DNA of 64,000 nucleotides, taken from the NCBI GenBank assembly GCA_012521055.1, contig JAAYNC010000062.1, forward strand, positions 14,315 to 78,314, read 5' to 3'. The notes under the pieces are model-generated. The model did not search any database, was not told the origin of the DNA, and saw only the letters and a list, made by a program, of their open reading frames with translations. Positions within the stretch are counted from its first letter, which is position 1. Every line of letters begins with the position of its first letter. Below, piece by piece: positions 49,352 through 60,314 of this stretch. A program made the position numbers and the translations under genes. Source of the DNA: Eubacteriales Family XIII. Incertae Sedis bacterium. GTDB lineage: Bacteria > Bacillota > Clostridia > Peptostreptococcales > Anaerovoracaceae.

Positions 49352-49837
49352 ATGGAAAAATCTAAAGTCTGGAAATTTAATCACAATGTAGATACGGATC
49401 AGATTATACCATCCCAATACCTGCTGTTGCCTACCATCGAAGAAATGAAAGCCTATACTTTTGAACCCCTTATTAAAGACTTTGCTAAGCAGGTTCAGCC
49501 CGGAGACGTCATCATTGCCGGTGAAAACTTCGGATGCGGATCTTCAAGGGAACAGGCGCCCCGCGTGCTGAAAGAATTGGGTGTCCGAGCCGTCATTGCA
49601 GGTTCATTTGCCAGGATATTCTTCCGGAACGCCATCAATATCGGACTACCGGCTATCATCTGCAAAGAAGCCTACGACAGGGTAAAACAGGATGACGTAG
49701 TGGAACTTGATATGTCGGAAGGATTGCTGAAGATCGAAGGCGAAACACAGACCTGCACCAGACTTCCCGAGTACATGCAGACCATTCTCAATGCCGGCGG
49801 GCTGATTGAATTTCTCAACAAGGAGGAAGTGGAGTAA
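49352..49837 (+). CDS. aconitase-family dehydratase small subunit (LeuD/HacB-like), copy 1
   Basis: DTDQIIPSQYL, GENFGCGSSREQAP, and FARIFFRNAIN motifs. Confidence 0.88.
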   Translation: MEKSKVWKFNHNVDTDQIIPSQYLLLPTIEEMKAYTFEPLIKDFAKQVQPGDVIIAGENFGCGSSREQAPRVLKELGVRAVIAGSFARIFFRNAINIGLPAIICKEAYDRVKQDDVVELDMSEGLLKIEGETQTCTRLPEYMQTILNAGGLIEFLNKEEVE

Positions 49838-51093
49838 TGGGAATGACAATAAGCGAAAAAATTATCGCCTCGGCGGCGGGTCTCGAGAAAGTTTCTGCAG
49901 GAGAAATCCACACGGTAAACGTCGACAGGCTCATGAGCAACGATGGGACCACACACCTCACCATCGATATGTATAACACCCTGCTAAAAAATCCGAGAAT
50001 TGCCGATAAAGATAAACTTGCATTCATCATCGATCACAACATGCCTGCCGATAATCCCAAAACAGCTGCAGCTCACAAAAAAATGAGAGACTTTGCAAGG
50101 GAACATGGAATCGCATTTTATGAAGGAAAAGGCGTGTGCCACCAGATTATGATGGAAGAATATGTACGGTCAGGCGAACTGATCTTCGGCGCTGATTCCC
50201 ATACCTGCACCTACGGAGCTCTCGGCGCCTTCGGCACCGGTGTAGGCAATACTGACTTCCTCTATGCCATGGTGACAGGCAAATCCTGGGTTCTGGTGCC
50301 TCCAACTCTTCGCTTTCACCTGACGGGGAAATTTAAAGAAGGCGTTTTTCCGAGAGATTTGATCTTGACGATTATAGGCGATATCGGGGCTGACGGCGCA
50401 ACCTATAAGGTTATGGAATTTACCGGCGAAGGCGCAAAAACCATGAATATCAACGAACGCATGGTCCTGGCCAATATGGCAGTAGAAGCTGGGGCAAAGA
50501 CCGGTATATTTGAGCCTGACGAAGCGGCTTTAGAATACCTGGAGAGCCACGGCCGAAAACCGAAACATCTTTTTAAAAGCGACCCCGATGCGGTATTTGA
50601 AAAGGAATACCATTACGATCTGAGTAAAATCGAACCCGTAGTGGCAAGGCCGGACAATGTGGATGACGTTGTCAGCGTAGATGAAATCGGCCATGTCAAG
50701 ATACACCAAGGCTTTATTGGTTCCTGTAACAGCGGCAGGATTGAAGAATTGCGCACCGCCGCATCCATCCTCAAGGGCAAAAAGATCGCTGATGGCGTAA
50801 GGCTGCTCATATCCCCCGCTTCCAATGCGGTTTACCTGCAGGCGCTACAGGAAGGTTTGATGGATATATTTATAGATGCGAGCGCAATGATCATGAACAG
50901 CAACTGCAGCGTTTGCTGGGGCGGCTGCCAGGGTGTCATTGGCGAAGGCGAAGTGTTAATATCAACGGGTACAAGGAACTTTAAAGGCAGGGCCGGCCAC
51001 AAAGATTCAAAAGTCTACCTTGCCTCGGCGGCAACGGTAGCAGCTTCCGCTTTGGCCGGTAAAATTGTCCGGTCAGATAGAGTCACCGCATAA
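49837..51093 (+). CDS. aconitase-family dehydratase large subunit (archaeal-type LeuC/HacA-like), copy 1
   Basis: GADSHTCTYGALGAF and IGSCNSGR motifs, plus a Cys pair in NCSVCWGGC. The start overlaps the upstream stop (TAATG). Confidence 0.88.
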   Translation: MGMTISEKIIASAAGLEKVSAGEIHTVNVDRLMSNDGTTHLTIDMYNTLLKNPRIADKDKLAFIIDHNMPADNPKTAAAHKKMRDFAREHGIAFYEGKGVCHQIMMEEYVRSGELIFGADSHTCTYGALGAFGTGVGNTDFLYAMVTGKSWVLVPPTLRFHLTGKFKEGVFPRDLILTIIGDIGADGATYKVMEFTGEGAKTMNINERMVLANMAVEAGAKTGIFEPDEAALEYLESHGRKPKHLFKSDPDAVFEKEYHYDLSKIEPVVARPDNVDDVVSVDEIGHVKIHQGFIGSCNSGRIEELRTAASILKGKKIADGVRLLISPASNAVYLQALQEGLMDIFIDASAMIMNSNCSVCWGGCQGVIGEGEVLISTGTRNFKGRAGHKDSKVYLASAATVAASALAGKIVRSDRVTA

Positions 51094-51135
51094 AGAACTA
51101 CTACTTGCCTGAAGATGGCATTATGGAGGTAATAG

Positions 51136-51627
51136 ATGAAAATCAAAGGAAATGTCTGGGTACTTGGAGATGACATAGATACGGATATAATCATACCCAC
51201 AGAATACCTGGCCATGAAAAGTATCGACGATATGAAACAATACGCTTTTTCACCCCTAAGACCTAAGCTAGCCGCATCTATACGTCCCGGCGATATAATC
51301 GTGGCAGGAAAGAACTTCGGTTGCGGTTCTTCGAGAGAGCAGGCGCCGGAGATCATAAAAAGCCTTCAGGTGGGCTGTGTCATCGCAAAATCCTTTGCCC
51401 GAATCTTCTATCGCAACGCAATAAATAACGGTCTTCTACTGGCAGAACACGATCTTTTGCCCGAGCTGGTCACCGAGGGGGACGAAATCACGGTCTCCGT
51501 GGGCGAATACATCGAACACAAAGGCAAAAGGTATGACCTCTCTCCCCTGCCCCCGAATTTAATGGAAATCATTGAGGCCGGCGGGCTTGTGGAAGCTATG
51601 AAAAAGAAGAATGCGCGAAATTATTAA
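51136..51627 (+). CDS. aconitase-family dehydratase small subunit, copy 2
   Basis: DTDIIIPTEYL, GKNFGCGSSREQAP, and FARIFYRNAIN motifs. Roughly 45% identical to copy 1 by eye. Confidence 0.88.
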   Translation: MKIKGNVWVLGDDIDTDIIIPTEYLAMKSIDDMKQYAFSPLRPKLAASIRPGDIIVAGKNFGCGSSREQAPEIIKSLQVGCVIAKSFARIFYRNAINNGLLLAEHDLLPELVTEGDEITVSVGEYIEHKGKRYDLSPLPPNLMEIIEAGGLVEAMKKKNARNY

Positions 51628-51718
51628 ACAATGTAAGCTATTTAAAAGTTCATAAAATCGAAAGTCCATAATCACAATTATATATATTTAATCGTTCCCA
51701 ATAGAAAGGGTTAATAAA

Positions 51719-52966
51719 ATGGGATACACCTGCATCGAAAAAATTATTATGAACAATCTCGGACTAAAGCATGTCCGTCCAAACGATATCGTCACCATTA
51801 ATGTGGACCGGGTCATGATTCATGACATCTTCGTCCCCTTTGTGTCGGAGAAATTCGAAGAGATGGGCTTTGATAAGATCTGGGATCCGGAAAAGGTTGT
51901 TTTAATTTACGACCATCTCGTCCCCACCAGCAGAGTGGAAGACGTTCGTCATTTTCAAATCGGTGACGCTTTTGCAGCCAAATACGGAATAAAGAACGTA
52001 CATAGAGGCGAAGGCATCTGTCACCAGCTCATGCCGGAAGCCGGTTACGTTAAGCCCGGAGACGTGGTCTTCGGTACCGACTCCCACACCACCACCTACG
52101 GAAGCATAGGCGCTTTTTCTTCCGGAGTAGGTTATACGGAAATGGCGGCCATTTTAGGAACAGGGCAGCTCTGGATTAAAGTCCCGGAGACCATTCGCGT
52201 AACCATCGACGGAAAACTGCCCGCTGGTGTCATGTCCAAGGACGTCATTCTTCGCCTGATCGGGGATCTTGGCGCGGACGGCGCAAATTACAAGGCACTG
52301 GAGTTTGCGGGCAGCGCCGTGGACTCCATGAGCATCGCCTCCCGCATGACAATTGCCAACATGTCAGTGGAAGCCGGAGCAAAGGTCGGTTTGTTTGCCC
52401 CCGATGAGAAAGTTGCTGAGTACTGCGAGGTTTCCGTTGAGGAAATTCCTGATATTTCAGCGGACGAAGACGCGAAATATGTGAAAGAAATCCGCTATAA
52501 AGCAGAAGAACTGTTGCCGGTTGTGGCCTGCCCTTCTTCCGTGGATAAAATAAAACCCTTAACAGAAGTGGAAGGCACACCCATCGATCAGGTGTTTATA
52601 GGTTCCTGCACCAACGGAAGATTGGAAGATCTGGAAATCGCCGCAAAGGTCCTCAGAGGGAAAAAAGTGGCTGATTATGTCAAGTTAATTGTCACGCCAG
52701 CCAGCCGGGAAGTTTATCGCCAGGCTTCCCAAGCCGGAATTTTAGAAACTCTGATAAAAGCCGGAGCCATCATCACCCATCCCGGCTGCGGACTCTGCTG
52801 CGGCAGAAGCGGAGGTATTTTAAGCGAAGGAGAACGGGTGGTTGCAACCAACAACAGGAACTTTCTCGGCCGTATGGGTCCCTCTTCCGTAGAAATCTAT
52901 CTCAGTTCGCCGGCTATTGCGGCCGCCAGTGCCGTTGCCGGCAGGATAGCTCTTCCGGCCCTTTAA
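51719..52966 (+). CDS. aconitase-family dehydratase large subunit, copy 2
   Basis: GTDSHTTTYGSIGAF, IGSCTNGR, and HPGCGLCCG motifs. Roughly 40% identical to copy 1 by eye. Confidence 0.88.
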   Translation: MGYTCIEKIIMNNLGLKHVRPNDIVTINVDRVMIHDIFVPFVSEKFEEMGFDKIWDPEKVVLIYDHLVPTSRVEDVRHFQIGDAFAAKYGIKNVHRGEGICHQLMPEAGYVKPGDVVFGTDSHTTTYGSIGAFSSGVGYTEMAAILGTGQLWIKVPETIRVTIDGKLPAGVMSKDVILRLIGDLGADGANYKALEFAGSAVDSMSIASRMTIANMSVEAGAKVGLFAPDEKVAEYCEVSVEEIPDISADEDAKYVKEIRYKAEELLPVVACPSSVDKIKPLTEVEGTPIDQVFIGSCTNGRLEDLEIAAKVLRGKKVADYVKLIVTPASREVYRQASQAGILETLIKAGAIITHPGCGLCCGRSGGILSEGERVVATNNRNFLGRMGPSSVEIYLSSPAIAAASAVAGRIALPAL

Positions 52967-54003
52967 GCCGAAAACCAACGGTAGAGACTGTTTTCGTTTA
53001 TTATAAGCAGCTCATTGTTGCGCACCGCCGTGTTCTCATCGGGAACATAGATGATGGGTTTTTGCACTTCATCAGCGATTTTAATCATATCCTTGATGCT
53101 GTAAACCTGGTAATACCGACTGAATTCCATGTCCGGTATTTCTTTCATGGCTACCATTCTGCTGCCATAGTTTTTTATTAACCCGCTGTTCTTTTTTCGC
53201 AACATTGCCAGCTCATCTGGTTCCTTAATGACGAACATCAGTATGGGGATAGCGGCTATACACAATAAAATAAGTACTGCGAGCAATGATACCTTAACCC
53301 GGTTAACGGGCAGAATGACTTCTTCCGTTTCCGTTACCGAACCTTTAATGGGTTCTCCCGCGCTCTTCTTCACCTGAAAGACATCTTCCAACAAAGGAAT
53401 CTCTAAATTTGTAGAAAAAGGAATCGTTACCTCTTCCTTGGTTACATTTGTGGTAACGGTGCCCAAAAGTTCTACGATAACCTCATTGGTTACATTCATG
53501 CCGGTAAGTTCTTTAGCCCTGACGGCCAGCGCGTCATACTCGTCCAGTGTAAAGTTAATCTGCTCGGTTGTGTTCCAGTTGTCCCCTTCTATCTCCACAA
53601 CCTTTTCCTCGGATAGAGGAAAGCTTTTCGACCAATAGATATTTTTTTTCTCAGCCTGACCCTGATAGCCGTTTACCGTGGCAAGGACTTGATACTGTAT
53701 CTTGACCGGGATGCTGTCGCTTCCCTGGTATTCCACGGCAAAATCTGCTTGAATATAATCAAGCAGTCGTTTGCTGTAATATCGTCCCTCTTCCAATTCG
53801 GTTCCGGGATATAATTCATTGGGCAGGATGTATACGGTATAATCCACGGAAGGATGACAGCTGTATTCGAAAATAACAGTCTCTTTAGTGGCTGTTTCCT
53901 CTTTTGTTATGGTGTTATAAGTCTGGATTCCTGCGAACAACAGGAGAAAAACAAGAATTATCAGAATAAACTTTTTTGTCTTCTTATGTAGTGTTAGTTT
54001 CAT
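52963..54003 (-). CDS. bitopic membrane protein of the SipW locus (DUF5305-like, tentative)
   Basis: N-terminal TM segment, an approximately 210-aa extracytoplasmic domain, a second TM segment (LLAVLILLCIAAIPILMFVI), and an approximately 90-aa C-terminal domain. It is the last gene of the locus, and its stop overlaps the convergent dehydratase stop (TTAA). Confidence 0.6.
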   Translation of the reverse strand: MKLTLHKKTKKFILIILVFLLLFAGIQTYNTITKEETATKETVIFEYSCHPSVDYTVYILPNELYPGTELEEGRYYSKRLLDYIQADFAVEYQGSDSIPVKIQYQVLATVNGYQGQAEKKNIYWSKSFPLSEEKVVEIEGDNWNTTEQINFTLDEYDALAVRAKELTGMNVTNEVIVELLGTVTTNVTKEEVTIPFSTNLEIPLLEDVFQVKKSAGEPIKGSVTETEEVILPVNRVKVSLLAVLILLCIAAIPILMFVIKEPDELAMLRKKNSGLIKNYGSRMVAMKEIPDMEFSRYYQVYSIKDMIKIADEVQKPIIYVPDENTAVRNNELLIINENSLYRWFSA

Positions 54004-54051
54004 ATCCTACCTCGACCTTTATCATTGTATACGTGTATTGTGTAAATTATA

Positions 54052-54078
54052 GGGTGCCTTAGGGGGATTAAGGCACCC
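54052..54078 (-). terminator. strong hairpin after the TasA-like subunit gene (partial terminator or stabiliser)
   Basis: GGGTGCCTTA-7 nt-TAAGGCACCC lies 48 nt after the stop of the 302-aa gene. The U-tract is weak. Confidence 0.55.
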
Positions 54079-54125
54079 GTATAAAAGAATTTAAGAATTA
54101 TAGAATATAGCTATTTCACTATATT

Positions 54126-55034
54126 TCAATACTCATTTGCTGAAGCATTGAACTGATCCCATCCGAATTTAAGTGTGAAGGATGCGTTCTTTAGCTGTGT
54201 TCTCGTATCATCATTATTTTTATAATTTGCTACAGAACCAGTGGTGTATACTCCTTCAGCATCCGGATCCATAGCAACACCTAAAATCAAATCCATTCTC
54301 CATTGATCATCATCCATGTCTTCGTTAACAGGATAGATACTGAGAAGATTGTCGCCGCCAACTGTGTAGTCATCCAATGCTGAAAGGCGTACAAACGGCT
54401 GTCCTCCAACATAGAAAACATTCTCATTTGGCAACAGATTAAATACTTCGTCCCCACCCTCTCTCATCACTTTCAATGATATGCCGATCATATTTTTTAC
54501 AGCATTATTATCGCCTGCAAAAGTGGCTTTAATTTGACTCAGCTTTGCTGCCAAAGTGCCGGGATTGACAATGTCAGTTCTGAAGAGCTGGGCATATCCA
54601 GGATAAATATCCTTTATAGATATTGCAATTTTGTCTGAAGACTTTGTTGTTCTAACATAGTCGCCAACGTCCTTGCCAAGGTTTTTCTTGTCAACTAATT
54701 TAGCATCAAATCCGGTTGTCGTATAACCTTGAATACGATCTTGGTAATCTTCTATTGCTTCTGGATCTGCTATAATGTTATAGAGTGGTTTATCATCCCA
54801 TTCTGTCCCCCGGTCGAAATATTTGTCTCCCAACTCTGGGTATATACCGTCAAAAATAGCCCAGCCAAGTTCATCGTCATACTGACCGAATAATGCCAAA
54901 TCCACAAACCTTACGTCGAGTTCCCCCGTTGATACCGTTGTGTTTACCTGCAGGCTATCCGTCCAGTAGGCGTATCCCATGCCCAGGAACAGCATCGCGC
55001 ACGCAAGGACACATGCTAATACTTTTCTCTTCAT
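54126..55034 (-). CDS. secreted protein with a SipW-class signal peptide (candidate major fibre subunit, TasA analogue)
   Basis: The N-terminus is MKRKVLACVLACAMLFLGMGYAYWTDSLQVNTTVSTGELDVRF. The start is placed at the ATG after AAGGAGAAA. Confidence 0.75.
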   Translation of the reverse strand: MKRKVLACVLACAMLFLGMGYAYWTDSLQVNTTVSTGELDVRFVDLALFGQYDDELGWAIFDGIYPELGDKYFDRGTEWDDKPLYNIIADPEAIEDYQDRIQGYTTTGFDAKLVDKKNLGKDVGDYVRTTKSSDKIAISIKDIYPGYAQLFRTDIVNPGTLAAKLSQIKATFAGDNNAVKNMIGISLKVMREGGDEVFNLLPNENVFYVGGQPFVRLSALDDYTVGGDNLLSIYPVNEDMDDDQWRMDLILGVAMDPDAEGVYTTGSVANYKNNDDTRTQLKNASFTLKFGWDQFNASANEY

Positions 55035-55204
55035 CTCCGTTTCTCCTTTTGAAAATATTTTTTTGGCTTTTCGCCTGTCAATAATTATATATCGGCGCAT
55101 GAGTCTCCAAAATTACCCGGCCGTTCACTCTTATATACGCCATTTGGTCCGTTTGCCTACCACTTCAGAGGTATACATGTTTAAATTACTTACTAAGCGC
55201 CTGT

Positions 55205-56437
55205 TCAGAATTCGACATCTCCTATATCCTCTCCTGTCGAACCTTTGATAAGTAAGGCGGGATAACCCACCTTCGGAACCACTTTAACCAGCGTTCCTTT
55301 AATGTCGTTCGGGTGTACAAGACGGCTGTCTTCCGTAGAGTTGTTGTCCCCCTTCGTTCTGAAGGTCAGGTTGCCGAGGCCGTCATCAATTACCTCCACG
55401 ATGCGGTGAGTAATACGGATATTATCCCTCTGAAACTGAATCACATCGCCTTCTGTAAGGCTTCTCAGCTGCTCTTCCGTCTGCATCTGCCTGATGAGAA
55501 TCACATCGCCGGGGTAAATCAAAGGTTGCATGCTGCCGGTGACCACCACAGAGGGCACGATGGGGAAGACGCCGACGATGAACCAAATAAGTCCTATGGA
55601 GAAAACTGCCGTCACCGACCAGCCGATAACCCCTCCTTTTTGTTCTTTTGCACTTTTATACCGGTGTTTTTGTTCCTCATACTTCCCGACAATGAAGAGG
55701 ATACAGCCGATGGGGACTAGAATACCGATGGCGCCTTCTGCCAGCCACATTAATGACGAGAGGATAGGAGAAGTCCAATGAAACAGCTCCTGTACTCCGC
55801 CGTAAAGAATTGCCGCGACCGGGCCTCCGTAGAGAGCAAGATAGGACAACATGATGTTAATACAAAGCTTGGGGCCAACTTCCGTAGAAAAACAGATCGC
55901 CATATCCTCAATATCGGATACCAGCGCCAATTTGGAATAATTTATATTGCAGGCGGTCATCAACAATGTTATGAAGATGAAAACTTTCAGGTTGTGCTTG
56001 TTGCAATATGTACCGAGTATGTAGCTTCGTATGACCTCCCGGGCAGCTAAAGCGGGAAGAACATAGAAAAGATTGCCGAGTATCCCTTTCGGCGATAAAT
56101 CGTAGGGACTTTCTCCAAGTTGTCCAAGCATGGATCCCACAAGAATCTTGACAGCGATAAGGATAACGGCACAGACCACCGCCTCCATATAAATCGTTTC
56201 CCTCTTTACAAGTCGACCCGCCGCATGAACCCTGGGAACAAAGAAAAACATTAGGATTAGAAAAACACACCAAATTGCCGGAAGTATCTTGCGATTAAAA
56301 AGATAAGTAAACTGATAAGAACTGCCCTGCATCCATTCCAAGAGAAAAGGTAACAGGGCAAGTCCTATAAAGAGGAACAGCAAAAGATTGCTGATCCTTC
56401 TGTACTTATTGATATTCAGCACTTCCATCCTTACCAC
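55205..56437 (-). CDS. sipW: SipW-type (ER/archaeal type) signal peptidase I fused to an N-terminal polytopic membrane domain
   Basis: The C-terminal ~140 aa carry TGSMQP (Ser), THRIVEV (His) and TKGDNN motifs, as in SipW. The preceding ~270 aa contain about 7 hydrophobic segments. The exact start is ambiguous (GTG 56437 or ATG 56428). Confidence 0.8.
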   Translation of the reverse strand: MVRMEVLNINKYRRISNLLLFLFIGLALLPFLLEWMQGSSYQFTYLFNRKILPAIWCVFLILMFFFVPRVHAAGRLVKRETIYMEAVVCAVILIAVKILVGSMLGQLGESPYDLSPKGILGNLFYVLPALAAREVIRSYILGTYCNKHNLKVFIFITLLMTACNINYSKLALVSDIEDMAICFSTEVGPKLCINIMLSYLALYGGPVAAILYGGVQELFHWTSPILSSLMWLAEGAIGILVPIGCILFIVGKYEEQKHRYKSAKEQKGGVIGWSVTAVFSIGLIWFIVGVFPIVPSVVVTGSMQPLIYPGDVILIRQMQTEEQLRSLTEGDVIQFQRDNIRITHRIVEVIDDGLGNLTFRTKGDNNSTEDSRLVHPNDIKGTLVKVVPKVGYPALLIKGSTGEDIGDVEF

Positions 56438-56488
56438 TTTCTCCGTTTCTTTTTATATCTTGTCCATGATGTCTTGTTCATTTAATAT

Positions 56489-56944
56489 TCAGTTGTCTTT
56501 ATCCTCTGCTTCCTGTGAAGCTTCAGGTACGTCATCAGTCTGAGAATCAGCTATTTCCGTATCCTCAGACAAATCTTCCTCAGCTGTTGTTGGGTCATAG
56601 GTCGCTTGGCCGGAACCCGCATTTGGAGAACCTGCATCCGGATCGTTAATTTCGGAGTTTGTGTTAGATTCGCCAGCCTGGCGATCTTCCGTTTCCGGCT
56701 CGGCAATTTGATTATCATCCGTTGCCGGCAAAATAGTATCCGGTTCTGCTGCCGGCTCTGCAGTCCCCTCTATTAGCTCTTCCTCCTGTGCCGGCCTGTC
56801 ATTGACAATGGGCAGCTCGATTTCAAATATGGCTTCGCCTGAAATTGTAAGCTGATCTGTCCAATAACCGTAACTGATGGTAATGATCATGAAAACTAAT
56901 GCGGTTATTGCGGTTAACGTCACAAATACTCTTTTTCGTTTCAT
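56489..56944 (-). CDS. secreted protein with a SipW-class signal peptide, a short beta segment and a long acidic low-complexity tail
   Basis: Translation MKRKRVFVTLTAITALVFMIITISYGYWTDQLTISGEAIFEIELPIV, followed by ~105 residues rich in E/D/P/T/A/S. Confidence 0.7.
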   Translation of the reverse strand: MKRKRVFVTLTAITALVFMIITISYGYWTDQLTISGEAIFEIELPIVNDRPAQEEELIEGTAEPAAEPDTILPATDDNQIAEPETEDRQAGESNTNSEINDPDAGSPNAGSGQATYDPTTAEEDLSEDTEIADSQTDDVPEASQEAEDKDN

Positions 56945-56959
56945 TACTATCACTTCCCA

Positions 56960-57730
56960 TCACTTTGCGTTGAATTGTTCCAGTACCAGCGGGATCTCAA
57001 AGCCATAACAACCCTGCAACGACAGCCTGAGATTGGTCTCGTCACCGATCTCATCATACATTTCCTCCGGCAAATCAAAATCAGACAGTAATAGGGGTCC
57101 TTCCGGAAGAAGTGTACATGGTTCCGTCTGCTCCAATACGATGGTTCCCTGCATCAGATTCTTTCGTTCGTTTATCATAAGAGTGTGGTGCACACGAAAA
57201 TCCCCCAGATCTTCAAGCAATGAATCGTAAATTATCTCCGGAATACGACCTAAGCCTCTGGTACCCGAGCCAAAACTTATGGAGTCGCCCTCAATGCTCC
57301 ACTTCGGTGTTCTTGTAGTTAATTTAAAGGGGATTACTCCTATGATGCTGCGCACCTGGTCTCTTTCATCGATGGTAGCCGCTCTCAAGATGCTCTGATC
57401 TTCCGTCGCTTTCATCGCATATCGGATGTGCAATTCCATATCCCCGTCTTCAAGCATGGACATAGGGATAGCTTCCATGTCCGTGATTCTGAGGGTCTTT
57501 CCGTCATATTCTATATCTGCATCCAGCTTCTTTATTTTGCCGTTTTTACCCATGATGCCGATTATGGCTCCCTCACCCTCTATGTCATGGAAATCAAAAT
57601 CCATGCTGCCCGTTGTGAGATCTGTTTCTACGGTCAAAAAATCCGTATAGGCCGCATAACTTATGCCCAGCATACCCACAGCGACTACTGCAATTAACAA
57701 AAGTCCTACCTTGTTAAATATCTTTTTCAT
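56960..57730 (-). CDS. secreted protein with a SipW-class signal peptide (TapA/TasA-like accessory subunit candidate)
   Basis: The N-terminus is MKKIFNKVGLLLIAVVAVGMLGISYAAYTDFLTVETDLTTGSMDFDF. Confidence 0.72.
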   Translation of the reverse strand: MKKIFNKVGLLLIAVVAVGMLGISYAAYTDFLTVETDLTTGSMDFDFHDIEGEGAIIGIMGKNGKIKKLDADIEYDGKTLRITDMEAIPMSMLEDGDMELHIRYAMKATEDQSILRAATIDERDQVRSIIGVIPFKLTTRTPKWSIEGDSISFGSGTRGLGRIPEIIYDSLLEDLGDFRVHHTLMINERKNLMQGTIVLEQTEPCTLLPEGPLLLSDFDLPEEMYDEIGDETNLRLSLQGCYGFEIPLVLEQFNAK

Positions 57731-57789
57731 CTTTTCCTCCGGTCACCGAGGGATTAAAATTAAACGGATTATGTATGCCAATCCCTCTA

Positions 57790-58410
57790 CTATGATTTAC
57801 CGGCTAATCTGTAGGCATACACCACTACTTCCATTCGATTGGACATATTCAGCTTGGAAAGAATACTGCTTACATGTTTTTTCGCAGTCCCTTCGGAGAT
57901 AAAAAGGTTGTTGCCTATCTGCGAATTCGTGAGACCCTTGCTCAGTTCTGCCAGCACTTCCAACTCCCTGTTGGTAAGAAGGCAAATACCGTCCCGTTCT
58001 TTGTCGCTCAATGCTTTCTCCACCAATTTGGCAGGATAATATTTTTCTCCTCTAAGAATCAAGCTATATGCATATTTCAGGTCATCCGCATCCGCTTCTT
58101 TCAGGAGATAGCCTTCTACATCGAGATCTTTTGCCCTGCGAAATTCAAAGATGCTGATGGTGGATGCCAACAAAATGATCTTCGGAGAACTTTCACCCGG
58201 AGCCTTGATACAAGAAATCAAATCGAATCCGCTACCGTCTTTTAAGTGCAGATCTACAAAAATAACGTCGATGGGATTTGTCTTGCAAAGCTCTATGGCC
58301 TCTTTTACGGTTGCTGCTTCAATAAACTGCTGATCTGCTCGTTCGTAATGGAGAACATGCATAATCCCCTTCCTTATCAAGGGCTGATCATCTACAATGA
58401 GAATCCTCAA
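57790..58410 (-). CDS. NarL/LuxR-type response regulator with no adjacent kinase
   Basis: Receiver domain (ILIVDDQPL, FVDLHLKDGSG) plus a LuxR HTH (LTNRELEVLAELSKGLTNSQIGNNLFISEGTAKKHV). TTG start after GGAGG. Confidence 0.88.
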   Translation of the reverse strand: MRILIVDDQPLIRKGIMHVLHYERADQQFIEAATVKEAIELCKTNPIDVIFVDLHLKDGSGFDLISCIKAPGESSPKIILLASTISIFEFRRAKDLDVEGYLLKEADADDLKYAYSLILRGEKYYPAKLVEKALSDKERDGICLLTNRELEVLAELSKGLTNSQIGNNLFISEGTAKKHVSSILSKLNMSNRMEVVVYAYRLAGKS

Positions 58411-58619
58411 ATTTCCTTAACCTCCGTGGATAAATCCAATAGATGAAAGGGTTAGACTATCTGTTCTTTTAGTAAAATTTTATAAATCAAATGCATGTGA
58501 GGCAACATTTTTCGGTAGACAAATAAAGGCGTAAACCGCTTATCTCCAATGGTTTTCGGCGTATTCCGACACGATGTTACAACAAATGTTGTCAGCCATT
58601 GTAAAAAGCCGTAGACACG

Positions 58620-58670
58620 AAAAAAATGCCGGCCACCGAATATAATCTTTGACGTCATTCAGTGACCGGC
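58620..58670 (-). terminator. Rho-independent terminator after putP
   Basis: The minus strand has GCCGGUCACU-23 nt-GGUGGCCGGC (10 bp including 2 GU pairs) followed by a U7 run. Confidence 0.6.
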
Positions 58671-58748
58671 ACTTTATATAGAACTGTTTAAATATGTAAT
58701 TGATTTAACTGTATTGCATTGTAAAATTGCGAATTGCATTTTCTCATA

Positions 58749-60314
58749 TTATTCCAATGTAAGCCTTCTCGCCTCTTCGAACTCTTCGATGACGCTCTCA
58801 TCCGGCTCTTTGGAAAGTTTGGATACGACGATAATGAACAGACATGAAATGACAAATGCCGGGAACAGCTCATAAATGCCAAAGACGCCGCCCATAGGTT
58901 TCAACAATAATTTCCATATGAACACCATGCCTCCGCCGCTGAGCATGCCTGCAATTGCCCCTGCTCTGGTCACGCGTTTCCAGAACAAAGAGAACAGCAT
59001 AATAGGCCCGAAGGTGGCTCCAAAACCGGCCCAGGCAAAAGAAACGACTATGAATATCACGCTATTTTCATCCATGGCGATGATCATGGAGCAGATAGCA
59101 ATAATAATCAAAGTAATCCTTGTGCAATATAGAACTGTTTTGTCTGAAGCTTCTTTCTTAAATATGCCCTGGAAAATGTTCTTGGAAAAAGCAGATGCGG
59201 CGATCAGCAAATATGAATCGGAAGAACTGATGGTAGCCGCTAAAATACCCGCCATTACAATTCCTGCAATCAAAGGTATGAAGAAACTGGTTGAAAGCAG
59301 GATAAACACGTTCTCCGCGGAACTCTGGGTCAGGAAGGTGCTGGGATAAAGGGCTCTTCCAATGATGCCGATGAACACTGCGGCGAAAAGGGAAATGGCA
59401 CACCATATTATGGCGATTCTTCTAGACATTTTCAGTTCTGAAGGATTTTTAATGGCCATAAACTTCAAGAGCACCTGAGGCATGCCAAAATAGCCCAGAC
59501 CCCAGGAAAGTGTTGAGATTATGGTCAGGAATCCGTACGGTGCAGCGTCTCCAAAGAGAGGCTTTCCACCCTCTCCTATCTGCTGAACGCCATCAGCCAG
59601 AATAGGTTGTGCGATTCCAAAAAACTCAAAGAATCCGGGAATCTGCTGCACATTTTCAATTACCGCGGATATGCCTCCGGCGGCGCTGACTCCTGCAATC
59701 ATAACGATCGCCAATGAGAAGAACATGATTACCCCTTGCATGAAATCCGAAGCGCTTTCGGCCAGGAATCCGCCGATATATGTATAAAAGACTACAAAGA
59801 CCGCTCCGGCAATCATCATGTATTGATACTTTGTCCCGAACAAAGTGCTGAAGAGCTTACCCATTGTTACCAGGCAGCTCGCTGCGTAAACCGTGAAGAA
59901 AATAAGAATAAATAAAGCCGCAATCGTCATAATAACTTTTTTGTTCTCTTTAAACCGGTTGCTGAAAAAGTCAGGGATAGTTATAGCATCACCTGCAACG
60001 ACAGTATAGTTGCGTAGTCTCTTTGAAACGAAAAGCCAGTTAAGATATGTACCGATCAAAAGACCTATGGCAGTCCAGGCAGCATCGCTAAGGCCGTACC
60101 AATAGGCTACGCCAGGCAATCCCATAAGGAGCCAACCGCTCATATCCGAAGCTTCTGCTCCCATGGCGATGATCCAAGGTCCGAGTGACCTACCTCCTAT
60201 CAGATAATTATCGCTGCTTTCTCCCGCTCTCTTGGCGTAATATACGCCGATACCGATTACCACTGCCATATAGAGCACCATGGCTATGAAAATCTGTCCT
60301 TTGTCCCCAATCAT
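58749..60314 (-). CDS. putP: sodium:proline symporter (SSS family)
   Basis: 521-aa polytopic protein with a PutP-like N-terminus (YLIGGRSLGPWIIAMGAEASDMSGWLLMGLPG). Confidence 0.85.
   Translation of the reverse strand: MIGDKGQIFIAMVLYMAVVIGIGVYYAKRAGESSDNYLIGGRSLGPWIIAMGAEASDMSGWLLMGLPGVAYWYGLSDAAWTAIGLLIGTYLNWLFVSKRLRNYTVVAGDAITIPDFFSNRFKENKKVIMTIAALFILIFFTVYAASCLVTMGKLFSTLFGTKYQYMMIAGAVFVVFYTYIGGFLAESASDFMQGVIMFFSLAIVMIAGVSAAGGISAVIENVQQIPGFFEFFGIAQPILADGVQQIGEGGKPLFGDAAPYGFLTIISTLSWGLGYFGMPQVLLKFMAIKNPSELKMSRRIAIIWCAISLFAAVFIGIIGRALYPSTFLTQSSAENVFILLSTSFFIPLIAGIVMAGILAATISSSDSYLLIAASAFSKNIFQGIFKKEASDKTVLYCTRITLIIIAICSMIIAMDENSVIFIVVSFAWAGFGATFGPIMLFSLFWKRVTRAGAIAGMLSGGGMVFIWKLLLKPMGGVFGIYELFPAFVISCLFIIVVSKLSKEPDESVIEEFEEARRLTLE

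Follow-up and report, generated by a model that had tools for sequence, protein, structure and literature searches.

A clostridial six-gene operon that probably encodes an AbpX-type donor-strand fibre of the TasA superfamily

AbpX of Pyrodictium abyssi (PDB 9SJ2/9RHP) belongs to the TasA superfamily and forms polymers through donor-strand complementation, which depends on Ca2+ (Sleutel et al., January 2026, bioRxiv 10.64898/2026.01.04.697558). Loci of the abpX type are described from archaea, Bacillota and Chloroflexota and contain genes for minor subunits that resemble AbpX, for tip proteins, for a signal peptidase I of distinct structure with ten transmembrane (TM) segments and for an accessory protein with DUF5305, while the AbpX homologues themselves have an isoelectric point (pI) of about 4 and contain about 15% Asp/Glu (bioRxiv 10.64898/2026.01.04.697558). 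Other described systems that invite comparison are the tapA-sipW-tasA operon of Bacillus subtilis (PDB 8AUR; PMC10151520, PMC9674648), the sipW-bsaA-bsaB-bsaC operon of Clostridium perfringens (PMC7395162, PMC11580942), the regulation of which was studied by Obana et al. (PMC7395162), and the haloarchaeal Tat-fimbriae or Tafi (PMC11821415, PMC12337348). Here we analyse a six-gene operon on the minus strand of a stretch of 64,000 nucleotides (the window) from an Eubacteriales Family XIII. Incertae Sedis bacterium (GenBank assembly GCA_012521055.1, contig JAAYNC010000062.1, positions 14,315 to 78,314 of the forward strand) and compare it with these systems.

The operon is probably a bacterial abpX-type donor-strand fibre operon of the TasA superfamily, and its product would be an extracellular fibre of the biofilm-matrix kind. 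The gene of a response regulator is followed by the genes of five proteins, here named B (256 amino acids, aa), C (151 aa), D (a peptidase fusion), E (302 aa) and F (346 aa), in the order regulator-B-C-D-E-F (Table 1). The locus is a further member of an already described type and not a new kind of system, since abpX-type loci with AbpX-like subunits, a multi-TM signal peptidase and DUF5305 are already contained in the preprint (bioRxiv 10.64898/2026.01.04.697558). Its distinctive features are the enlarged major subunit, the lack of a wall anchor, the conserved accessory proteins B and C and a membrane domain of the peptidase that is unmatched in databases. A preliminary description, made from the sequence alone, had placed six minus-strand genes at exactly the positions where our scan of open reading frames (ORFs) finds them. 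It had proposed a fibre or matrix system with assembly by donor-strand complementation and dependence on a peptidase of the SipW type, with E as the major subunit and the two proteins encoded upstream as accessory strand donors. This core proposal is supported by the homology to AbpX and TasA, the AbpX-type peptidase, the DUF5305 protein and the conservation of the cassette.

To judge from its sequence, E belongs to the TasA superfamily as an AbpX-like protein of enlarged size with a jelly-roll fold, and it is the predicted major fibre subunit. The mature subunits had at first appeared unrecognisable, which no longer applies to E but still does to B and C. When a profile of 46 E-family sequences was compared to 177,635 PDB sequences, AbpX (9sj2, also 9rhp) was the best match, and the alignment comprises the donor strand and the core strands 'ITIEKAYPG...ENVGTIPA'. 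For a comparison of families we rebuilt the AbpX sequence from the supplement of the preprint (it is 100% identical to the P. abyssi protein) and made a small AbpX-family alignment; a search with AbpX itself yielded 7 proteins. In hhalign, the E family and the AbpX family align at 97.8% with an E-value of 1.1e-12 over 152 columns. There is also a direct connection to an archaeal abpX locus, L088 (L-numbers denote individual loci), which encodes, in this order, AbpX-like proteins of 186 aa and 226 aa, a 411-aa protein and a DUF5305 protein. In BLASTP, E matches both AbpX-like proteins, one over the first 45-47 residues (E-value 2e-09) and the other, of 226 aa, over aa 22-168 of E (E-value 1e-07).

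The structural comparison points in the same direction. The AlphaFold2 model of E is beta-rich (predicted local distance difference test score, pLDDT, 79.7), with residues 18-28 disordered (pLDDT below 50). Its sole Foldseek match in the PDB at an E-value ≤ 1e-3 is the TasA fibre (8aur_A, E-value 2e-4, probability 1.0), and the archaeal bundling pilus 7ueg ranks tenth among the matches. Predicted mature E is acidic (pI 4.21, 16.8% Asp+Glu) and contains neither Cys nor His. A word-index search yielded 320 homologues, none of which carries a Pfam domain; where they have been given names at all, these are 'signal peptide protein' or 'SipW-dependent-type signal peptide-containing protein'.

TasA and camelysin proper are represented in Pfam by Peptidase_M73, one of three models for which the preliminary description had suggested a search, the others being DUF5305 and the model of SipW-cognate signal peptides (both are treated below). 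E stays below the cut-off of Peptidase_M73 (17.4 versus 22.5 bits, E-value 0.004), and the match covers only aa 26-64 of a longer, 324-aa version of the ORF. Weak as it is, this match could be taken to mean that E is a secreted enzyme, for example a metalloprotease like camelysin, and the label that the Joint Genome Institute (JGI) gave to one relative, 'predicted ribosomally synthesized peptide with SipW-like signal peptide', could suggest a precursor of a ribosomally synthesized and post-translationally modified peptide (RiPP) with a SipW-type leader. Both interpretations are very improbable: the match is limited to the signal peptide and the donor strand, no enzyme family of Pfam or NCBIfam and no enzyme structure matched E, and there is no HExxH-type metal site, because mature E lacks His and Cys. 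Moreover, E is a folded beta protein of about 280 aa and the cassette encodes no modification enzymes.

A different question is whether the fibre would be held together covalently. BsaA of C. perfringens is a SipW-dependent TasA-like protein that forms isopeptide-linked oligomers (PMC11580942), and five of the 46 E relatives match the BsaA model of NCBIfam, TIGR04090, weakly (best E-value 0.0023). E might accordingly be a polymer of this variant within the same kind of system, in which donor-strand exchange is followed by a Glu-catalysed intermolecular Asn-Lys isopeptide bond. However, E itself does not match TIGR04090 and is closer to AbpX, the interface of which is stabilised by Ca2+ and not covalently, so that we regard a covalent lock as improbable.

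The peptidase provides the second line of evidence for an abpX-type operon. By homology, D is assigned to the dedicated signal peptidases I of the AbpX-associated multi-TM class, which are Ser-His enzymes of the type found in the endoplasmic reticulum (ER) and in archaea. The SipW-type peptidase fusion recognised at the outset is borne out by the catalytic domain (approximately 55615-55238), which matches TIGR02228 (archaeal/ER-type signal peptidase I) with 67.2 bits at a cut-off of 51.85. D also matches human SEC11C/SEC11A (E-value 5e-9), and its sequences GSMQP, THRIV and KGDNN align with the catalytic motifs. The catalytic residues S302, H344, D364 and D370 are 100% conserved in 68 homologues, with a Ser-His and not a Lys configuration. 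Nevertheless, D is not SipW itself, because the equivalog model of SipW (NF046067) gives only 68.5 bits compared to a cut-off of 190.

The N-terminal 270 residues of D (56428-55628) are polytopic. Family-averaged hydropathy indicates about eight TM segments plus one anchor segment, approximately nine in total, and the positive-inside pattern argues for an N-in/C-out topology that places the catalytic domain outside the cell. A scan of four orthologous N-domains at an E-value ≤ 10 gave no consistent match to any Pfam or NCBIfam family. In the 68 homologues, near-invariant polar residues occur in a predicted outward-facing loop (P111-Y112-D113-x-S115-x-x-G118-x-x-x-N122, or SPYDxSxxGxxxN) and in the next TM segment (E134-x-x-R137-x-Y139), and G204-G205, Y212, F219, P224 and W231 are near-invariant as well. 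The sequences 'REVIR' and 'ELFHW' had suggested an intramembrane protease of the CPBP/Abi type, for which there is no consistent family match; this idea was dropped, because there is no conservation of the His in ELFHW. D aligns over its full length with the 411-aa protein of the archaeal locus L088 (aa 25-393, 26% identity, E-value 2e-24), and the alignment spans the polytopic domain including the GG/Y/P/W and ExxR motifs. The neighbour of abpX in P. abyssi, a 380-aa S26 peptidase, aligns with D in the catalytic part only.

F is a DUF5305 protein (PF17231, 108.4 bits at a cut-off of 29). It had been described as bitopic, and this has to be refined to a protein with two hydrophobic segments, at aa 8-33 and approximately aa 228-263. 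The DUF5305 gene adjoins the peptidase gene in L088 as well as in the clostridial relatives. A comparison of F to PDB sequences gave no match, and BLASTP with the archaeal DUF5305 protein was marginal (E-value 0.026), for which reason the connection between F and its archaeal counterpart rests on the Pfam model. DUF5305 proteins have been proposed as accessory subunits of the signal peptidase and not as fibre anchors (bioRxiv 10.64898/2026.01.04.697558; PMC12337348).

The third line of evidence is the N-terminal design that B, C and E had been noticed to share. The pattern [SGT]Y[AG]x[YWF][TSN][DE] has exactly three matches in the six-frame translation of the window, compared to 0.11 expected by composition, and all three are the ends of the signal peptides of B, C and E. 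The predicted mature N-termini all read x-(W/Y)-T-D, which is the signature of the AbpX donor strand in which position 2 is aromatic and position 4 is acidic, and the predicted junction in E, GMGYA-YWTD (the hyphen marks the cut), parallels GLTYA-QWSE in AbpX. Among the E relatives, W is found at mature position 2 in 78 of 78 sequences and D at position 4 in 74 of 78. The predicted mature forms of B, C and E have pI values of 4.1-4.4 and contain 17-30% Asp+Glu, in line with the description of the AbpX family. With the model of SipW-cognate signal peptides, TIGR04088 (curated cut-off 19 bits), E scores 19.1 bits from the 302-aa start and 18.9 bits as the 324-aa ORF, and 42 of the 46 E relatives match at an E-value ≤ 0.1.

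The likeness extends to the C-termini. The pattern [DE]Q[FWY]N has only two occurrences in the entire window, which are the ends of B (...LEQFNAK) and E (...WDQFNA), and the AbpX-like subunits of L088, which start with MWSETLQVNVTVSTGEVDV and MWAETLRINVTVETGELDW, end with ...AQWNE and ...VQWNE. The donor strand of E, YWTDSLQVNTTVSTGELDV, is nearly identical to the archaeal MWSETLQVNVTVSTGEVDV (L088:8001-9269, contig JBPKTM010000018.1), while the remainder of the two proteins is barely alignable. This near-identity fits either the inter-domain gene transfer considered in the preprint or a very strong constraint on the strand. Since D aligns over its full length and the N- and C-termini of the subunits match, the fusion architecture of the peptidase is conserved across domains of life, and so are the strands with which the subunits begin and end.

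The conserved segment could also be a mere recognition element of the peptidase, and B, C and E would then be monomers that are secreted or located at the surface, for instance as adhesins or in association with the wall, and that have nothing in common but a dedicated peptidase. This would agree with the overlap between the segment and TIGR04088, which by definition describes peptidase cognates, and with the lack of a TasA-like fold match for B. We nevertheless judge it unlikely. The conservation continues for about 19 residues beyond the cleavage site, where the alternation and the W2/D4 residues of the inserted strand of AbpX are found, the segment of E that is disordered in the monomer model (aa 18-28) is what would be expected of a strand in need of a partner, and the core of E has homologues in two proteins whose fibre structures are solved.

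We therefore retain the interpretation of the locus as a donor-strand fibre operon, in which B and C would be primers, caps or tips of the fibre. B matches no Pfam or NCBIfam family above cut-off. A word-index search yielded 7 homologues and an exhaustive profile search 103 representatives, and in hhalign the B and E families align at 94% over aa 1-50 only; profile similarity to the E and AbpX families is confined to the signal peptide and the donor strand. No PDB sequence matched B, even with a deeper alignment. Its AlphaFold2 model (pLDDT 80.6) contains a beta-rich domain, for which Foldseek found no significant structural neighbour in the PDB (best E-value 0.03).

C is of a simpler design. 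Only about 20 ordered residues follow the predicted cleavage site, after which there is an acidic tail of about 100 aa with low complexity and no TasA/AbpX-like core; mature C contains 29.6% Asp+Glu and has a pI of 4.05. Equivalents with a signal peptide, a donor strand of the YA-YW(T/K)D type, a short strand and an acidic low-complexity tail of 28-128 residues are encoded at the matching position in more than 40 loci. Since the protein consists of a signal peptide, strands and an acidic tail, it would have a strand to donate and no domain to accept one. Related roles are known from bacilli: TapA supplies TasA with its N-terminus as the complementing strand and is believed to take part in initiation alone, its own fold being complete (PMC10151520), and in Bacillus cereus the chaperone-like CapP modulates the assembly of TasA and CalY with a separable N-domain that nucleates and a C-domain that modulates (PMC13082335). 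In eight loci of the Lachnospiraceae type (L028, L029, L045, L047, L066, L068, L075 and L081) there is no room for a separate C gene; their B-like protein is longer (283-368 aa), and its gene abuts or overlaps the peptidase gene. This longer protein may be a fusion of B and C, or C may have been lost.

The cassette is conserved as a whole, in at least 45 species of Clostridia, Filifactor alocis and oral Lachnospiraceae among them. A scan of one genome per species revealed 102 loci with an E relative, all of them in Clostridia, and the hosts include members of Anaerovoracaceae, Filifactor, Peptostreptococcus, Peptoanaerobacter, Lachnoanaerobaculum, Stomatobaculum, Oribacterium, Johnsonella, Oscillospiraceae and Syntrophomonadaceae. 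Among the 48 loci with sufficient flanking sequence, B, D, F and E occur together in 45, and the regulator is present in 46. C was detected by a hidden Markov model (HMM) in 34 of the 48 loci, and 8 more were found by inspection of all scanned loci without an HMM match (not all of these are within the 48). A HisKA_3 kinase is encoded directly upstream of the regulator in 36 of the 48. Two gene orders exist, kinase-regulator-B-C-D-F-E in most loci and regulator-B-C-D-E-F without a kinase in the clade of the window. The closest relatives are metagenome-assembled genomes (MAGs) of Anaerovoracaceae with 75-90% protein identity and identical flanking genes.

Compared to the AbpX loci, the operon has homologous core strands, an acidic subunit, a DUF5305 gene, a multi-TM signal peptidase I with an archaeal counterpart to which it can be aligned from end to end, additional AbpX-like or tip genes, and a two-component regulator. 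It differs in the insertions of E, some of which separate the first core strand from the conserved YPG strand while others lie in the C-terminal half, in the lack of genes for cyclic di-GMP (c-di-GMP) and in B, which has no recognisable AbpX core. C, consisting of a donor strand and an acidic disordered tail, is a component that does not appear in the description given in the preprint.

With the tapA-sipW-tasA operon of B. subtilis the locus shares a peptidase of the ER/archaeal type, a major subunit predicted to be a donor-strand beta-sandwich (the E model has its best fold match in TasA), and an accessory protein, the N-terminus of which would be able to fill the groove. However, E fails the Pfam model of TasA and camelysin beyond the N-terminus, D has about nine TM segments whereas SipW has about two according to the preprint, the B. 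subtilis operon contains no DUF5305 partner, and TapA has a complete Ig-like fold without similarity to B or C. The regulation differs as well, with SinR/SinI in B. subtilis and a response regulator within the operon here. The bsa operon of C. perfringens is likewise a SipW-dependent TasA-like matrix operon with one polymerising subunit and non-polymerising paralogues. It differs in the BsaA polymers, which are locked by intermolecular isopeptide bonds, and in BsaC, a von Willebrand factor A (vWA) protein that is secreted through type IV pilus genes. The only description given of the bsa peptidase is that of a SipW-type signal peptidase I, and a DUF5305 protein is not listed in the four-gene operon. 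The Tafi system resembles the locus in its strand-donating pilins TafA and TafE, the peptidase TafD, the regulator TafB, the variable minor or tip proteins and the DUF5305 protein TafG, which is 'predicted to assist' the peptidase. In contrast to the proteins encoded here, which have Sec-type signal peptides, the Tafi pilins are mostly exported by Tat and belong to another clade of the TasA superfamily.

Several observations weigh against the assignment to a donor-strand fibre. Taken by itself, the match of the E profile to AbpX among the PDB sequences is only marginal (E-value 0.0097), and the TM-scores of the Foldseek comparison of E with TasA are low (0.31/0.39). Mature E, with about 280 aa, is nearly twice the size of AbpX (163 aa), because it contains large insertions. 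No TasA-like core was detected in B by the comparisons of PDB sequence and fold and by hhalign, and the donor strand of B is far less conserved across its family than that of E. The cut-off of TIGR04088 is missed by B (11.7 bits) and by C (no match). Furthermore, there is neither an LPXTG or S-layer homology (SLH) anchor nor a sortase in the operon, though several bacterial abpX loci in the preprint have such components. It should also be kept in mind that the cleavage sites given for B, C and E are predictions based on the motif and on the -3/-1 rule, that the proposed polymerisation of E by donor-strand complementation is derived from homology, and that we infer the roles of B, C and F.

On the assumption of an abpX-type fibre, the following mechanism can be proposed. 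B, C and E would be exported by Sec, and D, probably together with F, would cleave them on the C-terminal side of the small residue in (S/G)-Y-(A/G). Cleavage would bare an amphipathic N-terminal strand beginning with x-(W/Y)-T-D. Mature acidic E could then polymerise head-to-tail by donor-strand complementation, the N-terminal strand of one subunit entering the open groove of the next, and Ca2+ may sit between the acidic residue at position 4 and the groove, as in AbpX. C, with a strand and no acceptor, and B, with a strand and a divergent domain, would each fill the free groove at one end of the fibre. They might set the assembly site or the number or length of the fibres, either like TapA, by priming or capping, or in the role of a tip or adhesin. 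The conserved stem-loop after the E gene, and possibly a promoter in front of it, could give E the expression level of a major subunit, and the response regulator would switch the operon on after phosphorylation by a kinase encoded elsewhere in the genome.

One can go further and see in the cassette a Clostridia-wide variant of the TasA/AbpX systems with a division of labour of its own. C would be a primer or cap consisting only of a strand, with an acidic disordered tail that binds Ca2+ or the cell wall and controls fibre start or length; B would be a tip or adhesin of new fold that plugs in by its donor strand; and the SPYDxSxxGxxxN loop of D together with ExxR would form an assembly platform that couples cleavage to strand insertion and thus would be usher-like in a Gram-positive organism. 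As a combined model this is tentative, and we think it rather less probable than its negation.

The regulator is of the NarL/LuxR kind, as had been recognised from the start, and matches the receiver (REC) and GerE domains (Pfam Response_reg, 66.5 bits; GerE, 65 bits). Its putative phospho-acceptor D53 is retained within VIFVDLHL, and it is 39-40% identical to the regulators encoded downstream of a HisKA_3 kinase in the cassettes of Filifactor and Lachnoanaerobaculum. That no kinase gene is nearby also agrees with the preliminary description: an HMM built from the kinases of related cassettes matches nothing in the whole 64-kb window. In most related cassettes (L004, L005, L020-L027 and others), a polytopic HisKA_3 kinase of about 540 aa is encoded immediately upstream of the regulator. 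The clade of the window, which consists of Anaerovoracaceae-like MAGs, has lost the kinase or never had one, and the regulator is an orphan with an intact acceptor Asp. In the window, a sodium:solute symporter gene (58749-60314, minus strand) stands upstream of the regulator.

Two hairpins had been proposed, of which only one is maintained. The stem-loop between E and F has a free energy of -19.6 kcal/mol and a z-score of -6.0, and none of 200 shuffled sequences folds as well; it also appears in a terminator scan, with a weak T-tail. All nine relatives with the E-F order that were checked (L006, L007, L009, L011-L014, L018 and L056) possess a GC-rich stem-loop after E. In most of them the stem sequence (GGGTGCCTTAA / TTAAGGCACCC) is combined with a variable loop, and L006 and L056 carry a different GC-rich hairpin. 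In loci where E is the last gene, a terminator-like hairpin follows E instead. The stem-loop is probably a partial terminator or an mRNA-stabilising element, and its placement after E, like that of the terminator-like hairpins, fits a high expression of E and a low expression of F. In contrast, the hairpin after the regulator gene (57748-57787) is no better than shuffled sequence (z = -0.96, equalled by 32 of 200 shuffles). The spacer between D and E contains a promoter-like site with 10 of 12 consensus matches, a possible internal promoter of the major-subunit gene. It is only a candidate, because such sites are no more frequent in the region than in shuffled sequences. A scan of 52500-59200 with Rfam found no RNA family and hence no c-di-GMP riboswitch.

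The features of the operon are compiled in Table 1. For some of the genes, alternative starts had to be considered. A GTG at 56953 would extend C to 154 aa, and an in-frame ATG at 55100 would extend E to the 324 aa of the ORF list. The orthologues of C, D and E use starts equivalent to the 151-, 407- and 302-aa versions. The 324-aa version of E is probably wrong, because its 22-codon extension (55035-55100) holds the best promoter-like hexamers of the region and the orthologues start at the MKRK codon.

Table 1. Features of the abpX-type operon (positions in the 64,000-nucleotide window)
Feature	Position	Strand	Remarks
Response regulator, NarL/FixJ type	57790..58410	-	206 aa, TTG start
Protein B, 256 aa	56960..57730	-	Putative secreted accessory subunit; predicted signal peptide aa 1-26 (57730-57653), predicted donor strand AYTDFLTVETDLTTGSMDF aa 27-45 (57652-57596)
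Protein C, 151 aa	56489..56944	-	Predicted signal peptide aa 1-26; predicted donor strand and second short strand YWTDQLTISGEAIFEIELPIV at 56866-56804
Protein D, signal peptidase I	55205..56428	-	407 aa from ATG 56428 (probable start); 410 aa from GTG 56437 (start in the ORF list)
Promoter-like site TTGACA-16-AATATT	55054..55081	-	D-E spacer, just upstream of the E start codon
Protein E, 302 aa	54126..55034	-	Predicted signal peptide aa 1-22 (55034-54969), predicted donor strand YWTDSLQVNTTVSTGELDV aa 23-41 (54968-54912)
Stem-loop, GC-rich, GGGTGCCTTAA...TTAAGGCACCC	54052..54078	-	Between E and F
Protein F, DUF5305, 346 aa	52963..54003	-	N-terminal TM segment, extracytoplasmic domain of about 190 aa, second TM segment at about aa 228-263, cytoplasmic C-terminal domain

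Downstream of the operon and convergent to it, the plus strand (49837-52966) encodes an aconitase-family dehydratase as two tandem copies of a subunit pair, with large subunits at 49837-51093 and 51719-52966 and a single small subunit at 51136-51627. The second of the large-subunit genes shares 4 bases with the DUF5305 gene, at the stop of the latter. In the closest MAGs the cassette is flanked in the same way.

Fibres of the TasA superfamily are protein scaffolds of the biofilms of Bacillus and of several archaea. In many anaerobic Clostridia, the AbpX-like version, together with a multi-TM peptidase and DUF5305, forms a conserved module of seven genes. Among its hosts are Filifactor alocis, a periodontal pathogen, and the oral genera Lachnoanaerobaculum, Stomatobaculum, Oribacterium, Johnsonella and Peptoanaerobacter. 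The literature that we searched contains no experimental study of these clostridial cassettes and no paper that links F. alocis, the only member of the clade searched for by name, to SipW, TasA or camelysin. The cassettes offer cultivable models for the priming, capping and attachment of fibres without a sortase or an SLH anchor, for the extra membrane domain of the peptidase and for the contribution of such fibres to oral biofilms.

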